Origin: an uncultured archaeon | GTDB lineage: Archaea > Asgardarchaeota > Jordiarchaeia > Jordiarchaeales > Jordiarchaeaceae | DNA length: 8,369 bases | Assembly: GCA_964510585.1 (NCBI GenBank) | Contig: CAZECW010000007.1 | Location: forward strand, 1-8,369 | Reading direction: 5' to 3' | Shown here: piece by piece, positions 1-7,859 of the stretch | Layout of the letters: every line of letters begins with the position of its first letter | Numbering within the stretch: the first letter of the stretch is position 1 | The notes under the pieces: generated by a model | Seen by the model: only the letters and a program-made list of their open reading frames with translations | Told to the model about the DNA's origin: nothing | The model's database searches: none | Position numbers and translations under genes: made by a program

Positions 1-605
1 CATCCACGACCACCGTGAGCAACTCCAGCACGCCCAAGTCCACGTAGGCCCTCTTATCTGAGAGCGGTTGATGGGGAGGTTCGACCTCCACCGATTGTTG
101 GGCGTACCACCTGTTTCTGTTTTTGTCGTAGATGATGGTGAGCAAGCCCTGCCTGCTCCAACGGTTCCACCTGGGCCGGCCTTTCCACTTTACTTTCAGC
201 TTCTTGGGGAGCTTCAGGATGCCAGTTTCTAGCCTATAGCAGTCGCGCCTGATTAGAATCAGGAGCCTTCGCTCTCCTTTCTTCCAATCCTTCCAGTAGC
301 GCGGCGGTGCCACCTTTTGTGTGTGTGGTGGGAGTTTTCCCTCGGCTTTTTGTAAGTAGGGCGAAGAACGATTTCCAGGCCTCGTTGTTCTTCCTCTGGA
401 TTTGCTGGGCGGTTGCGGAGCCCACTATACCCTTATACTTGTTGTAGAGGTCGCGGCTCTCCCAGTTGATCTTGCCCTTGAAGAAAGATTGCCTGCGGCG
501 ATAGTTGAGTTCGTTCCACAGTCGGGCGCATGCATCTGCGATCTCCGACAGCTGCCTGTGCTGTTTTTTCGTTGGGGCGAGTGCAAACGTGTTTGTACGC
601 TTCAT
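1..605 (-). pseudogene. tnpB: TnpB RNA-guided nuclease, frameshifted near 347-358 and truncated by the window edge
   Basis: Frame 1 from ATG 605 reads MKRTNTFALAP...LWNELNYRRRQ...NNEAWKSFFALL, then degenerates to a stop at 236-234. The +1 frame continues QKAEGKLPPHTQKVAPPRYWKDW...WYAQQSVEV...AYVDLGVLELLTVVVD to position 1, including the RuvC-I-like VDLG motif. Confidence 0.88.
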
Positions 606-607
606 CT

Positions 608-997
608 TTACAGCCTCGACTGCGTTTCGATGTATTTCTGAATGGTTTTGTTCGACACGTTCTCCGCTGTGGAAACGAAGTATGAGTTGGTCCAAAGCGA
701 CGGAAGCTTAAGCAGGTGGGGGAACTCCCGTCTTAAGTGGTGGGATGAGCGGCCCTTGAGTGCTTTGACGAGCTTGTGGACTGGAAGCTGGGGATATGCG
801 GATATGAACAGGTGCAGGTGGTCGGGTTGCACTTCTAGTGCCAGGATTTCCACGCCCTTCTCCTTTGCTACTTCTCTCAGGATTTGCTCCAGCCGCATTT
901 TTACCTCGCTTATGGGGACTGGCTTTCTGCGCTTGGGGCGCCAGAAGAGGTGGTAGTTGATGGGATAGACTTGGTTTCGAGAATGCCGGTATTCCAT
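608..997 (-). CDS. tnpA: IS200/IS605 Y1 (HUH) transposase TnpA, ~129 aa
   Basis: NYHLFWRPKRRK N-terminal motif, HUH motif DHLHLF, W-x-x-SYFVST and C-terminal KYIETQ with the catalytic Tyr. Start placed at ATG 997 (MEYRHS) because the ORF-track start at 1045 abuts the IS end hairpin. Confidence 0.93.
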   Translation of the reverse strand: MEYRHSRNQVYPINYHLFWRPKRRKPVPISEVKMRLEQILREVAKEKGVEILALEVQPDHLHLFISAYPQLPVHKLVKALKGRSSHHLRREFPHLLKLPSLWTNSYFVSTAENVSNKTIQKYIETQSRL

Positions 998-1049
998 CTG
1001 TTGATGCAAATTTATCAACACGCAAGCCTTAAGCTTTTTTGGCATTCAT

Positions 1050-1243: not shown

Positions 1244-1669
1244 TTAGCTATTTTCTTTAACGCCTAGTTTGCCTCGGAGTATCTTTCTTCTTTTTATTCC
1301 TTGGAGTACTTCTTTGTAGCTGGTGAATTGGTTCTCCTTGTAGCGCTGCTCCACATCTTTCCAGAGCCTGCGATAGTAGTAGAAGTACTCTGAGATTTCC
1401 AGGGGGTCTCCGAAGACTACAGCATAGTTTGACATGACTTCCGCCTTTATGTGGAGGGGGAAACTTTCGAAAATCCTGACATCGTAGCCTGATGGAGTTT
1501 TTCCTAGGAGATTTTTCATGGTTTTTAGGTTAGCTTCATTGTTCTCGGTTCTTGTGATAACCGCCACGTCAATATCGGATCGTGGGGTGGCTTCTCCTCT
1601 GGCCCAGCTTCCGTAAACCACAACCCAGAACCCACTTAGAGCCTTCAGGTCGCTTCTAATCTCCTCCAA
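1244..1669 (-). CDS. mntA: Minimal nucleotidyltransferase (MNT), MntA-like antitoxin
   Basis: GSWARGEATPRSDID matches GS-x10-D-x-D. TTG start overlaps the HEPN gene by 14 bp. Confidence 0.88.
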   Translation of the reverse strand: MEEIRSDLKALSGFWVVVYGSWARGEATPRSDIDVAVITRTENNEANLKTMKNLLGKTPSGYDVRIFESFPLHIKAEVMSNYAVVFGDPLEISEYFYYYRRLWKDVEQRYKENQFTSYKEVLQGIKRRKILRGKLGVKENS

Positions 1670-3179: not shown

Positions 3180-4349
3180 ATGGTTTCTCCACTTAAGGAT
3201 AAGATAGCAATTATGGGTGTGGGATACACCAAATTTGGAGAATTATGGGACAAAAGCCAAGAAGACCTCATGGTCGACGCAGCATACGAAGCTTTTAACG
3301 ACGCGGGAATAGAACCCAAAGACATAGATGCAATCTGGGTTGGCGTACAATACTTCTTCACAGGACTGTCTGGCGCCACAGCCACAGAACCCCTAAAAAT
3401 TTTTGGAAAACCCGCAACCAGAGTGGAAAACTTTTGCGCCTCAGGAATGGACGCCTTCCGAAACGCCTGCTACGCGGTCTACTCTGGAGACATAGACATT
3501 GCCCTAGCCTGCGGCGTAGAAAAACTCATGGACGCCGGATCCAAAGGACTGCCAGGGTTTGACCAATTTGGACATCCAGTCTATGGCAACGTTTCCGCCC
3601 CAGGAATGTTCGCCCTAATGGCTACAAGAGCGTTCCACAATTGGGAGTGGACTAAGGAGGATTTGGCAAGAGTAGCAGTTAAAAATCACTACAATGGCGC
3701 CGCGCATCCCAAGGCTCACTTCAGAAGGGAAATTAAGATTGAGGATGTTTTAAATGCCCCCATGATTGCTGAACCCTTGGGCAGGTATGACTGCTGCGCT
3801 ATGAGCGACGGAGCCGCGGCACTTATTGTTACACGTCCAGAGATTGCAAAGCAGTACAAACACAAGGACGACTTTGTGGTTTTGAAGGGAAATGGCATGG
3901 CCGTGGAAACCGTTTACCCTTACTATAAACCCAGTTTTGATTTTTCCGAAGTACCAGCAACCATTAAGGCGGCTCAAGCGGCCTACAAGGCTGCAGGAAT
4001 AAAGGATCCAGTCAAAGAGATTGGGTTTGCCGAGGTACACGACTGCTTCACCATAACAGAACTCCTAAATATGCAAGATTTAGGACTATGCAAAAAGGGT
4101 GAAGCTGCCCAACTGGTAAAGGATGGTTTCACCGCTATTGATGGCGAATTTCCAATTAATCCCAGCGGTGGACTCAAATGTTTCGGACACCCAATTGGAG
4201 CCACAGGATGCCGCATGCTGGTTGAAGTCACAAAGCAGATTCAAGGCAGGGCAGATGGACGTCAGGTTGAAAGGAATGAGGTGGGAATGGCCCACAATCT
4301 GGGCGGACCCTACACAGTTTGCACTGTGACTATTCTCGGAAGACCCTAA
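3180..4349 (+). CDS. Thiolase (acetyl-CoA C-acyltransferase), SCP2/archaeal-type, 389 aa
   Basis: N-terminal MGVGYTKFGE, catalytic Cys in VENFCASG, AEVHDCF, NPSGGLKCFGHPIGATG, and C-terminal AHNLGG. Confidence 0.95.
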   Translation: MVSPLKDKIAIMGVGYTKFGELWDKSQEDLMVDAAYEAFNDAGIEPKDIDAIWVGVQYFFTGLSGATATEPLKIFGKPATRVENFCASGMDAFRNACYAVYSGDIDIALACGVEKLMDAGSKGLPGFDQFGHPVYGNVSAPGMFALMATRAFHNWEWTKEDLARVAVKNHYNGAAHPKAHFRREIKIEDVLNAPMIAEPLGRYDCCAMSDGAAALIVTRPEIAKQYKHKDDFVVLKGNGMAVETVYPYYKPSFDFSEVPATIKAAQAAYKAAGIKDPVKEIGFAEVHDCFTITELLNMQDLGLCKKGEAAQLVKDGFTAIDGEFPINPSGGLKCFGHPIGATGCRMLVEVTKQIQGRADGRQVERNEVGMAHNLGGPYTVCTVTILGRP

Positions 4350-5079: not shown

Positions 5080-5619
5080 TTATGTTCTTAGGGCTTGGAA
5101 GTAGCATGCTCCGTTTTCGGGCATTGTTTGGAGCATGTTTAGTTTGACTTGGAATCCCATTTTGTCAAACACCGTTTGGAGTGCTGATAGGCAAGCGGCT
5201 TTGCAGGGCAATTTTTTAAGCTCCTCTTCGCTTATTAGGTTTTTTAGGGATTGATAAATTTTGCAGTCGTTCTCCGCCACTTTGAAGCTGAGTTCACGGG
5301 CATTGTTTGCCTCTATTTGGACAATTCCCATGAGGTGAACTGATAAGTACGCTATCTCTATGTATCTTTGTGCCACATGAGGAAAGATTAACTCACCGGT
5401 TTTCTTAGCGGCTTCCAATAGGATTTCATATGTTCGGTCACGATATTTGTCCTGGTCGCTTAGTTCCATGGTTCGAAGCATTAGTTGTTTGCCCCACTCT
5501 TCAAAGTCTTGGATGTTTTTGCTCGCAGCATACCTTTTCGCAATTGCCTCCCCATCAAATTCCTTCTCTATCGTTTCAAAGAGTTCATCCTTAATGTAGA
5601 AATCATACTTCTCAGCCAT
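5080..5619 (-). CDS. Hypothetical protein, ~179 aa, with a V4R/ATC-hydrolase-like Cys-containing C-terminal domain
   Basis: Long ORF with ATG 5619 preceded by GGTGA. C-terminal pattern FKV..DCKIY...LPCKAAC...QTMPENGACYF resembles the V4R/ATC-hydrolase fold. The fold call is pattern recognition only. Confidence 0.65.
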   Translation of the reverse strand: MAEKYDFYIKDELFETIEKEFDGEAIAKRYAASKNIQDFEEWGKQLMLRTMELSDQDKYRDRTYEILLEAAKKTGELIFPHVAQRYIEIAYLSVHLMGIVQIEANNARELSFKVAENDCKIYQSLKNLISEEELKKLPCKAACLSALQTVFDKMGFQVKLNMLQTMPENGACYFQALRT

Positions 5620-5636
5620 ACTACTCACCTTCAAGT

Positions 5637-5915
5637 CTATTTTGCAATTTCCTCCGGGGGTTGTATCACTACACTCAAAGCTTTATTGGGGCACACCTCC
5701 ACACACTTCATACAGCCCACACACTTGGGAGTCATAGGCGCTAATAGCAGGTAGGAGCCCGGCTGGTTTTCATCAATAGGCTGATACTTCTTTATCATCA
5801 TAGGGTTAGGCGTAACCAGAAACACCTCGCCCGGACAAACATCCATACACTTCTTGCAAGCAAAGGGTGTGGTACACTTCTGATAATCTATCGTCACCAA
5901 AACCTTACAACTCAT
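5637..5915 (-). CDS. 2x[4Fe-4S] ferredoxin-like protein, ~92 aa
   Basis: C-x5-C-x2-C-x3-CP (CTTPFACKKCMDVCP) and C-x2-C-x2-C-x3-CP (CVGCMKCVEVCP). ATG 5915 is preceded by GGTGA, which overlaps the upstream stop. Confidence 0.9.
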   Translation of the reverse strand: MSCKVLVTIDYQKCTTPFACKKCMDVCPGEVFLVTPNPMMIKKYQPIDENQPGSYLLLAPMTPKCVGCMKCVEVCPNKALSVVIQPPEEIAK

Positions 5916-5920
5916 ACTAA

Positions 5921-6766
5921 TCACCACGAATGTTTAAGCACCTCAAAATTGCGGCGGTTCACAAGTTTAATTGCGCCCCTTTTACATCCCGTTTCACAGA
6001 GCCCACAGCCAAAACACCTGGTTAAATCAATATAGGGAATCCCCTTCCTCACATTAGCTGTGATGGCCCCAAACTGGCAACGGGTAACACACTGAAAACA
6101 TCCATTACACTTCTCAGGATGGGCGAGAGTAGCAACACGCTCCCCCTTCAAAAGCTGCTTCATTCCATAGTCTAATCTCCAGCGAATACTTAGACAATCA
6201 CCATACGTACAATTGCACAATCCTCCAATGTAGGGTGCTCCTTCTCTTAACCCGAATGTCATAAGGGTATGAACCATACCCTTCTTATTCCACTCTTCCA
6301 ACCATTTTTTGGCTTCTTTATCACTAACAAATTCGGCACCAGCAGCATACCTTGAGGGGAGGCGCTCCCACCGAAACATACCCACACCCAACCCCAGGCA
6401 GGTCATCTTTGAACGGTCACGCTCAATGTAGCCGTGAAGCTGCCTACGACAATCACAGGCAATAAAGGCAATGGGACTAGCAAGATCAATCATAGTCTTC
6501 GCATCCTCCAAAGTAATCACCTGACCAGTGTGAATATCCCTCGCCAGTCTATTAAATTTAGCAACATACTCTGGGAATTTCTCGGGATCCAAATTTTTAA
6601 CTTGAAGCGTCTCAAGGGCAAGAGCACCCAACTGAGCCTCAAGATTTGCTCCCGCCCCTTCACCTTTGCGGTCAACCCTTGCACGATGGTACATCTGACG
6701 AGCGTAACGGCTAGCCCACTGATACCAATACTTACCAGTACCATGCTTGGTGCAAAAATCACACAT
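5921..6766 (-). CDS. Uncharacterised multi-Cys 4Fe-4S protein, paralogue A, 281 aa
   Basis: C-terminal CNGCFQCVTRC and CFGCGLCETGC dicluster. Extra motifs MCDFCTKH, ACDCRR, MTCLG, GMVH and CNCTYGDC. Confidence 0.9.
   Translation of the reverse strand: MCDFCTKHGTGKYWYQWASRYARQMYHRARVDRKGEGAGANLEAQLGALALETLQVKNLDPEKFPEYVAKFNRLARDIHTGQVITLEDAKTMIDLASPIAFIACDCRRQLHGYIERDRSKMTCLGLGVGMFRWERLPSRYAAGAEFVSDKEAKKWLEEWNKKGMVHTLMTFGLREGAPYIGGLCNCTYGDCLSIRWRLDYGMKQLLKGERVATLAHPEKCNGCFQCVTRCQFGAITANVRKGIPYIDLTRCFGCGLCETGCKRGAIKLVNRRNFEVLKHSW
6423..6514. repeat. 92-bp perfect direct repeat; second copy at 7388-7479
   Basis: Base-by-base identity (tcaatgtagcc...ctccaaagt), offset 965. Confidence 0.95.
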
Positions 6767-6783
6767 TCCAAAACCACTCCCAA
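6702..6783. repeat. 82-bp perfect direct repeat; second copy at 7673-7754
   Basis: Base-by-base identity (gcgtaacggc...ccactcccaa), offset 971. Covers the 5' coding region plus 17 nt upstream of the ATG. Confidence 0.95.
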
Positions 6784-6885
6784 TAATTTCACATCTAAAC
6801 TATGTCTTTAAATCTTTTAAAATTAAAAAAACAGTGTAAACTTAATAAATAAGGGTTACGGAAGGAGGAAAATTGGTTTAGGGTT

Positions 6886-7737
6886 CTACCAGGAATGTTT
6901 AAGCACTTCGAAGTTGCGGCGGTCCACAAGCTCAATGACTTGACGTTTGCATCCAGTCGCACATAGTCCGCAGCCGAAACACTTAGTTAAATCAATGTAG
7001 GGCTTTTCAGCCCGAATATTAGCAGTAATGGCTCCAAACTGGCACCGAGAAACACATTGAAAACAGCCATTACAGTTCTCAGGATGAGCTATTACAGCCA
7101 CCCTTTCCCCCTTAATGAGCTGCTCTATTCCATAATCGCGACGCCAGCGAATACTTATACAGTCAGCATAGGTACAATTACATAATCCTCCAATATAGGG
7201 CGCCCCATCCCTCAAGCCAAAAGTCATAAGAGAGTGAACCATACCCTTCCTATCCCAAGTTTCTAACCATTTTTTCGCTTCCTTATCACTAACAAAGTGT
7301 ACCCCAGCAACGTATCTTGAGGGTTCCCTTTCCCACCGAAACATTCCCACACCCAACCCCAGGCAGGTCATCTTTGAGAGGTCGCGTTCAATGTAGCCGT
7401 GAAGCTGCCTACGACAATCACAGGCAATAAAGGCAATGGGACTAGCAAGATCAATCATAGTCTTCGCATCCTCCAAAGTTATAACCTGGCCAGAATTCGT
7501 GACTCTTGCCAACTGGTTCACTTTCGCTACCAGCTCCGGAAACTTTTCAGGGTTAAGATTCTTAGCCTGAATCGCCTCAATCGCCGCTAATCCCATCTGA
7601 GCCTCTAATTGTGCAGTGCCTCCTGCCCCAGAAACCTTCCTATCAGTCCTCCTTCGATGGTACATTTGGCGGGCGTAACGGCTAGCCCACTGATACCAAT
7701 ACTTACCAGTACCATGCTTGGTGCAAAAATCACACAT
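6886..7737 (-). CDS. Uncharacterised multi-Cys 4Fe-4S protein, paralogue B, 283 aa
   Basis: Same motifs as paralogue A. Start at ATG 7737 (MCDFCTKHG) matches A, with an identical 17-nt upstream sequence. The 14-aa extension in the ORF track is probably not translated. Confidence 0.9.
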   Translation of the reverse strand: MCDFCTKHGTGKYWYQWASRYARQMYHRRRTDRKVSGAGGTAQLEAQMGLAAIEAIQAKNLNPEKFPELVAKVNQLARVTNSGQVITLEDAKTMIDLASPIAFIACDCRRQLHGYIERDLSKMTCLGLGVGMFRWEREPSRYVAGVHFVSDKEAKKWLETWDRKGMVHSLMTFGLRDGAPYIGGLCNCTYADCISIRWRRDYGIEQLIKGERVAVIAHPENCNGCFQCVSRCQFGAITANIRAEKPYIDLTKCFGCGLCATGCKRQVIELVDRRNFEVLKHSW

Positions 7738-7859
7738 TCCAAAACCACTCCCAAAACCAAGAAGGTTAACAAACACCAAGGATATTAATATAGAGAATAA
7801 CTCATTATTTCTTGTTTAAGATAGAAAATGAGTAGATTTTAATAAGTTTTACCTGTAAT

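Follow-up and report, generated by a model that had tools for sequence, protein, structure and literature searches.

Background

The described proteins closest to the products of the locus reported here include electron carriers, electron-input modules and small-molecule-binding domains. The 2x[4Fe-4S] ferredoxins include the delta subunits PorD and KorD, the C-terminal domain of HdrA, FwdF and MvhB. The glutamate synthase small subunit, NfnB, SudA and the N-terminus of dihydropyrimidine dehydrogenase represent the GltD-fed iron–sulfur (Fe-S) enzymes, whose input signature is Fer4_20 plus Pyr_redox_2. Ferredoxin:thioredoxin reductase (FTR) and HdrB are flavin-free Fe-S disulfide reductases with CxC or CCG Cys motifs, HypC-type carriers have an N-terminal Cys, and the Cys residues in the sensor domains of PoxR and MopR coordinate Zn. 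Galperin et al. (PMC5847659) report a resemblance among the HNOB, V4R and ATC-hydrolase domains, which have a fold and a cluster of three conserved Cys residues in common, and single out the phenol sensors PoxR and MopR in that comparison. Here we analyse four genes in an 8,369-bp stretch of Asgard archaeal DNA (hereafter the window). They encode two paralogues, A and B, of a Cys-rich protein called LARGE, a ferredoxin (FDX) and a small protein (X). The window is the complete contig C7 of a 3.78-Mb metagenome-assembled genome (MAG) with a completeness of 96%, and in public data it is closest to hot-spring bins of Candidatus Jordarchaeia, Jordarchaeum and Freyarchaeota. We propose that A, FDX and X make up a dedicated flavin-free multi-cluster Fe-S oxidoreductase complex of an uncharacterised family, a reading to which we give slightly less than even chances.

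Organization of the locus

The genes and the spacer that separates the two LARGE paralogues are as follows.

6886..7737, minus strand: LARGE paralogue B, 283 aa, ATG at 7737; novel eight-Cys N-terminal domain and C-terminal 2x[4Fe-4S] domain
6767..6885, minus strand: B–A spacer, 119 nt; T7 run, A/T-rich TATA-like boxes and the GGGAGTGG Shine–Dalgarno (SD) motif common to A and B
5921..6766, minus strand: LARGE paralogue A, 281 aa; eight-Cys N-terminal domain and 2x[4Fe-4S] domain at residues 208-281
5637..5915, minus strand: FDX, 92 aa from ATG 5915; 2x[4Fe-4S]; GTG 5927 is an alternative start
5080..5619, minus strand: X, 179 aa from ATG 5619; four-Cys protein, putative ligand-binding subunit

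All four open reading frames (ORFs) lie on the minus strand, in line with the four co-oriented genes of an earlier note on this DNA, and the TTG at 7779 in the ORF list is an extension upstream of the B ATG. That note had also described A, FDX and X as nearly abutting and each provided with an SD. This holds: as read from the sequence, the A stop and the FDX ATG are 5 nt apart, the FDX stop and the X ATG 17 nt, and an SD-like motif precedes each gene (GGGAGTGG 9 nt upstream of both A and B, GGTGAT before FDX and GGTGAG before X). The gap from the B stop to the A ATG is 119 nt. The leader GGGAGTGGTTTTGGA is identical in front of B and A, and B lacks its own FDX and X genes. From this layout we infer that A-FDX-X is a single operon and B a separate unit. 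B probably ends at a terminator within the spacer, where the A-FDX-X promoter probably lies as well, and B seemingly has a promoter region of its own.

Conservation of the three-gene unit

A word-based search yielded 338 LARGE clusters at 90% identity, and 290 members were found at E<1e-10 among 50%-identity representatives. In the source annotations these proteins are called ‘4Fe-4S binding protein’ or, spuriously, ‘ATP-binding protein’. Synteny was examined by a scan built on a 12-sequence LARGE alignment, which covered one genome per species and gave 80 loci; these represent 18 archaeal and bacterial groups at phylum level. FDX was the next gene after LARGE in 73 of the 78 LARGE genes counted, and both FDX and X followed in 64 of the 78. 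The X hidden Markov model (HMM) matched a same-strand ORF just downstream of LARGE in ~70 loci. The word-based search had picked up X in Asgard only, which was an artefact; the HMM extends X to other Archaea and to Bacteria. The exceptions to synteny are the tandem B copy, genes at contig ends, and a deeper clade (33-38% identity) together with the loci L064, L088, L105 and L106, in which FDX is kept and no X was called within the counting window. The earlier note had made its reading depend on homologues being syntenic, and they are. The near-universal synteny in both domains, together with the LARGE-FDX fusions described below, shows that the trio is a genuine functional unit.

Asgard carriers belong to the Jord, Frey, Hel, Prometh, Hod, Baldr and Atabey lineages. 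Among 301 Asgard genomes sampled, X was present in 14; all five other sampled genomes of the window's genus carry it and its occurrence elsewhere is patchy. The other archaeal carriers are Bathyarchaeia, Hadarchaeota and Ca. Methanolliviera. Bacterial carriers include Desulfotomaculia-type Bacillota and, among the Bacillota, the cultured strains Desulfofundulus australicus DSM 11792, Desulfovirgula thermocuniculi DSM 16036 and Desulfallas sp. Bu1-1, as well as Dehalococcoidia/Chloroflexota, Actinomycetota, Zixibacteria, Omnitrophota and Schekmanbacteria. The source genome itself contains three divergent trios on C7, C8 and C24, whose X proteins are 29-35% identical, and, on C80, C40, C118 and C70, four LARGE-FDX pairs that lack X.

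Two arrangements in other Asgard genomes were also observed. In Helarchaeota (L039:6001-9671), two full LARGE-FDX-X trios stand in tandem as diverged paralogues beside a FAD desaturase-like gene. In Promethearchaeota (L046, L048, L050 and L044), a second, very divergent LARGE-like gene of a separate deep clade lies ~4-5 kb downstream of the trio.

LARGE combines a ferredoxin domain with a novel Cys-rich domain

A and B are 82% identical as proteins and contain exactly 16 Cys residues apiece. Eight are in two CxxCxxCxxxC motifs and the others are C2, C5, C104, C106, C123, C184, C186 and C191, laid out in A as Met1-Cys2-x2-Cys5, C104-x-C106, C123 and C184-x-C186-x4-C191. Pfam recognised the C-terminal 2x[4Fe-4S] domain alone (approximately residues 215-270), with Fer4 at 37.4 (A) and 32.0 (B) bits against a cut-off of 21.1 and Fer4_7 at 32.2 and 32.6 bits against a cut-off of 27; NCBIfam likewise found that domain only. 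LARGE thus carries a bacterial-type 2x[4Fe-4S] ferredoxin domain (PF00037 / PF12838), and the fold was confirmed for residues 208-281. The Cys counts and the Pfam matches agree with the two 16-Cys ferredoxin-domain paralogues of the earlier note. The known 2x[4Fe-4S] ferredoxins account for only 8 of the 16 Cys residues of LARGE and have no counterpart to its residues 1-210.

Conservation was evaluated in an alignment of 60 diverse LARGE homologues with identity down to 24%. The columns C2, C5, W14, Q82, C104, C106, C123, C184, C186 and C191 were invariant (60/60). Seven of the eight ferredoxin Cys residues were also invariant, and C254 was conserved in at least 90%. Position 8 is His in 46 of the 60 and otherwise Tyr, Phe or Trp, and H166 is conserved in less than 90%. 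Of the eight Cys and two His that had been counted as further conserved ligands, the Cys thus stand, whereas H8 and H166 are unlikely to be obligatory metal ligands because they are not conserved across homologues.

Met1 was present in 57 of the 60 homologues. All eight full-length paralogues of the genome have a start codon right before the first Cys, be it ATG, TTG or GTG, and an SD upstream of it; therefore, the LARGE family starts with Met-Cys-x-x-Cys. The conserved Met-Cys N-terminus is probably functionally meaningful and may leave an exposed N-terminal Cys after removal of Met.

Residues 1-210, modelled separately, gave a predicted local distance difference test score (pLDDT) of 89.7. 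The model has a helical N-terminal part followed by an alpha/beta core, with Cys residues at strand ends and helix starts. When it was compared with the PDB by Foldseek, nothing rose above background (best E 0.06, probability 0.09), and a solved-fold test of the full LARGE model matched the ferredoxin domain alone to known folds. The PDB profile search with LARGE gave Fer4 matches only, the best being the polyferredoxins MvhB and FwdF via their Fer4 domain; the PPR and GCN5 matches in the PDB sequence and profile searches were due to chance. The neighbours of the N-terminal domain in the ESM Atlas were unnamed ‘hypothetical protein’ clusters only, and no longer fused form of the domain turned up when such proteins were sought, although this carries little weight. 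Thus Pfam, NCBIfam, PDB sequence and profile searches and Foldseek linked this domain to no named family, solved relative or solved fold. The earlier note had asked whether the large proteins map onto a characterised subunit that accounts for all Cys residues; they do not, and its description of an uncharacterised Fe-S module is upheld by the lack of a structural relative of the N-terminal ~200 aa. Literature searches on Jordarchaeia iron-sulfur proteins and on ATC hydrolase with 4Fe-4S returned no description of the module. Judged by the tools used, the LARGE-FDX-X module appears to lie outside any described family that they can detect.

Pfam and NCBIfam scans of the module proteins gave no match to radical-SAM, flavin or molybdopterin families, in agreement with the earlier note. 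Radical SAM was rejected because the Cys positions contain no CxxxCxxC and no radical-SAM core was matched. Activase models matched LARGE through the Fer4 part only, with scores far under the cut-offs. DUF362, QueG/RdhA, the RnfB N-terminal FeS domain and the homocysteine-biosynthesis family COG1900/NIL-Fd were rejected as identities for want of profile or motif support. HdrB/CCG and FTR, which likewise had no such support, are regarded as unlikely identities. The CxC motifs of LARGE invite comparison with FTR, HdrB and the Cys-Gly-Cys of the acetyl-CoA synthase (ACS) A-cluster. By analogy with FTR and HdrB, LARGE is flavin-free, has CxC pairs beside Fe-S ligands and would receive electrons from ferredoxin-type clusters; no similarity was detected.

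The source genome also encodes about eight longer relatives of LARGE.

Contigs C21, C75, C27, C125, C72, C10, C68 and C96 (e.g. L009:1417-2493, L010:1429-2517): longer LARGE relatives, 356-413 aa, without the N-terminal CxxC

They carry extra Cys residues beside the conserved ones (CxC..C-x6-C..CNCCxxCC), which suggests that the N-terminal domain needs eight or nine Cys residues, C2 and C5 completing the cluster sites. Their N-terminus is winged-helix-like with a weak TrmB match (E 3.5e-4), no Pfam or NCBIfam family covers their core, and neither FDX nor X accompanies them. Possible roles are those of Fe-S regulators or of a sister family of enzymes.

FDX is a dedicated subunit

FDX matched Fer4_6 of Pfam at 39.1 bits. 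Its first motif is an atypical C-x5-C-x2-C-x3-CP, which is followed by an insert of ~30 residues and then by a canonical CxxCxxCxxxCP; this first motif and the insert set FDX apart from the known 2x[4Fe-4S] ferredoxins. The arrangement is kept in 36 of 37 ferredoxins that partner LARGE. Besides its eight ligand-type Cys residues, FDX has a ninth, non-conserved one.

Five cluster representatives (P0147, P0170, P0196, P0223 and P0290) combine LARGE and FDX in a single protein. In an uncultured bacterium (L106:5096-6802, plus strand), an FDX domain is fused to a GltD/DPD-type flavoprotein (Fer4_20 + Pyr_redox_2); two X genes follow the fusion gene, and the locus has two LARGE and two X genes in all. 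Because FDX is fused to LARGE in some lineages and to a GltD-type module in one bacterium, it is regarded as a dedicated subunit, sometimes fused, rather than a free carrier; the earlier note had let the large subunits share one electron carrier. The L106 fusion has the input signature of the GltD-fed Fe-S enzymes, which suggests that electrons enter from NAD(P)H in at least this organism. The likeness comes from one locus; the window module has no flavoprotein, and its putative catalytic partner is unrelated to those of the GltD-fed enzymes.

X is a putative ligand-binding partner

The homologues of X are all 179-184 aa long. F79-P80, R85, E88, C119, C139, C143, C172 and F174 are invariant across Archaea and Bacteria; the four Cys residues are conserved in 67-70 of 70 sequences, C143 in 67. 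X had no match in Pfam, NCBIfam or the PDB.

The earlier note had called X V4R-like. PF02830 (V4R) searched against X and two paralogues gave nothing at E <= 1, a six-frame PF02830 search of the genome matched 12 places, X not among them, and hhalign of the X family with the V4R proteins of the genome gave a probability of 0.3%. Membership of V4R was thus rejected, and a weak likeness was found instead to ATC-hydrolase-like proteins, a family whose tie to V4R is at superfamily level only (PMC5847659). hhalign of X with the ATC-hydrolase-like proteins of the same genome gave 83% (E 9e-6) over the Cys motif, and the two have the C-terminal Cys-cluster motif C...C-x3-C...C-x-F in common. The nearest named ESM Atlas language-model cluster contained PF14196 in 23% of its members (score 0.90), and the PF14196 HMM (cut-off 28.1 bits) did not match X directly. 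X differs from ATC hydrolase, V4R and HNOB in the lack of a Pfam-threshold match, in a fourth invariant Cys, in its own FPHxxQR(Y/F)IE motif and in being always partnered with LARGE and FDX. It is best described as a putative divergent member of the HNOB/V4R/ATC-hydrolase ligand-binding superfamily, and its Cys residues may bind Zn or an Fe-S cluster.

Evolution of LARGE and of paralogue B

FastTree was applied to 88 LARGE proteins; the tree is quick and unrooted, so that no direction of transfer is claimed. The X-associated LARGE genes all fell in one 72-row clade with a local support of 98. Within it, archaeal and bacterial groups interleave, Bathyarchaeia and Methanolliviera with Dehalococcoidia and Hadarchaeota with an actinomycete. 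This pattern fits repeated inter-domain transfer of an accessory module. In the same tree, a LARGE 69% identical to A on a contig labelled Candidatus Deferrimicrobium (L038, DATKTP010000266), from a bin with a bacterial label, is nested in the Helarchaeota clade; either the contig was mis-binned or the gene was transferred very recently.

At the DNA level, A and B share 78.6% identity, and the identity is mosaic, with 92% in codons 1-15 and 86-96% in codons 76-120. These patches are compatible with gene conversion or local constraint. Relative to the orthologues in a sister MAG, A is 92.4% identical in nucleotides and 97% in protein, and B 91.4% and 99%. Because B retains 99% protein identity at 91.4% nucleotide identity, it is under strong purifying selection and not decaying, and purifying selection acts on A as well. 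Freyarchaeota have a single copy, and B is seen as a lineage-specific tandem duplicate. It is plausible that B is able to stand in for A with the one FDX and X, as the two interchangeable large subunits of the earlier note would require.

Genes surrounding the module

In the 80-locus scan, enoyl-CoA hydratases occurred near the trio in 18 loci, and a PRK06187-type acyl-CoA ligase (596 bits vs a cut-off of 476) in 9 loci of 5 groups. Beyond the trio itself, only these two recur in at least four independent groups. Repeated in a few loci each are aldehyde:ferredoxin oxidoreductase (AOR), acyl-CoA dehydrogenase (ACAD), an HpaB/AbfD-like protein, a nitronate monooxygenase-like protein, ADP-forming acyl-CoA synthetase, FAD desaturase-like proteins and MFS transporters. 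An MFS transporter follows each of the LARGE-FDX pairs on C80 and C118. A thiolase is found beside the trio only in Jordarchaeum and Freyarchaeum (3 loci). The link to acyl-CoA metabolism that the earlier note had drawn from the thiolase therefore survives in part: CoA-related genes recur, but in a minority of loci and not universally, and the thiolase is specific to Jordarchaeum and Freyarchaeum.

The other features of the window are as follows.

3180-4349, plus strand: thiolase of the PRK06157 type, 537 bits, above the cut-off; convergent with the Fe-S operon
1656-2078 and 1244-1669, minus strand: HEPN (HepT-like) and MNT nucleotidyltransferase genes, respectively; overlapping pair, typical toxin-antitoxin module
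1-1045, minus strand: IS200/IS605-type element at the contig end; Y1 transposase at 608-1045 (PF01797, E 1e-37)
234-695 and 2-313, minus strand: TnpB/OrfB-like N-terminal part, which appears frameshifted or cut by the contig end

Elsewhere in the source genome, C76 (~15-22 kb) and C150 (~21-29 kb) carry tandem arrays of proteins 410-450 aa long that end in a V4R domain (up to 68 bits), with Fer4 proteins interleaved. These arrays are another expanded Cys-rich family of the genome.

Discussion

In the proposed oxidoreductase, low-potential electrons would enter via the dedicated 2x[4Fe-4S] subunit FDX, cross the two clusters of the LARGE C-terminal domain and arrive at the novel N-terminal domain, whose eight invariant Cys residues (Cys2 onward, with two CxC) would ligate one or two additional sites, either Fe-S or another metal. 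A small organic molecule, probably a hydrophobic carboxylic acid or a CoA-thioester derivative, would be reduced or oxidised at this point with the help of X, the ligand-binding subunit, which would supply or gate the substrate. B would be a recent, selectively maintained spare LARGE that could replace A in the complex. With 16 Cys residues in LARGE, 8 in FDX and 4 in X, the trio offers up to 28 Cys ligands, a count that would allow up to four tetranuclear sites in LARGE, two in FDX and one in X.

These parts are held with different strength. That A, FDX and X together form a dedicated redox complex is proposed with high confidence, and that this complex is an enzyme rather than a conduit, a sensor or a maturation factor with moderate confidence. 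The assignment of CoA-activated or hydrophobic acids as the substrate class is made with low confidence. Several observations weigh against the enzymatic reading. The neighbours of the trio are mostly unconserved between lineages, and the association with CoA genes is confined to a minority of loci. Several trios of Dehalococcoidia lie between rpsL-rpsG-fusA-rpsJ and gyrB, which gives no metabolic hint. The GltD fusion occurs in one locus only, with a second GltD-like gene nearby in another locus, and the relatives of X include pure sensor domains.

The wide variation of the neighbours would also suit a generic electron conduit or reductive activator, in which the trio acts as a polyferredoxin-like wire of up to 6-7 clusters that feeds variable partner enzymes and has no substrate chemistry of its own. 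Every recognisable domain of the trio is an electron-transfer domain, and polyferredoxins headed the PDB profile matches, by way of Fer4 only. A wire, however, leaves the 210-residue novel-fold domain with its eight invariant Cys residues and invariant N-terminus unexplained, as well as the co-inheritance of a ligand-binding-type protein such as X, and no partner gene is consistently conserved. We thus consider the conduit unlikely.

The superfamily to which X is tentatively assigned includes the phenol sensors MopR and PoxR (PMC5847659), and the longer LARGE relatives of the genome have winged-helix-like N-termini, so that the trio could instead be a ligand-gated redox sensor or regulatory module, in which X binds a small molecule and the Fe-S proteins report the redox state to a regulator. 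Pfam and NCBIfam scans, however, detected no DNA-binding, kinase or other output domain in the trio, one bacterium has an FDX joined to an NAD(P)H flavoprotein, and the presence of several divergent paralogous trios per genome beside transporters and catabolic genes is typical of enzymes. This makes the sensor a somewhat poorer candidate than the conduit. A scaffold for metallocluster assembly or maturation, in which a metal or cluster would rest briefly on Cys2 and the CxC motifs before its delivery to a target enzyme, is very improbable: the Met1-Cys2 N-terminus recalls HypC-type carriers and the LARGE-FDX pair on C40 is followed by a CooC/ParA-type P-loop ATPase, but this neighbour was seen once, there is no consistent link to a hydrogenase, CODH/ACS or nitrogenase-like target, and a fixed 2x[4Fe-4S] domain with a dedicated ferredoxin is rare in scaffolds.

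The dedicated oxidoreductase is therefore retained as the preferred reading, and it can be extended. LARGE is carried by Asgard archaea and, among others, by lineages that oxidise alkanes (Helarchaeota, Methanolliviera and Hadarchaeota). A bolder proposal, which we regard as doubtful, is that the N-terminal domain is a new Fe-S fold with a catalytic site of a new type (Cys2, Cys5 and two CxC), which could be non-cubane or heterometallic. The module would then represent a new class of flavin-free reductases driven by ferredoxin or NAD(P)H, which has spread horizontally between Archaea and Bacteria and acts with X on acyl-CoA-related or hydrocarbon-derived acids in subsurface anaerobes.

A co-inherited three-gene Fe-S module that includes a confidently predicted domain without a solved relative makes a strong candidate for a redox enzyme of anaerobic carbon metabolism that has yet to be described. 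Reconstructions of ancient and eukaryogenesis-related metabolism draw on Asgard and subsurface genomes, and the several copies of the module per genome carry only ‘4Fe-4S binding’ or wrong ‘ATP-binding’ labels. Its presence in cultured strains makes the function of the module experimentally tractable now.

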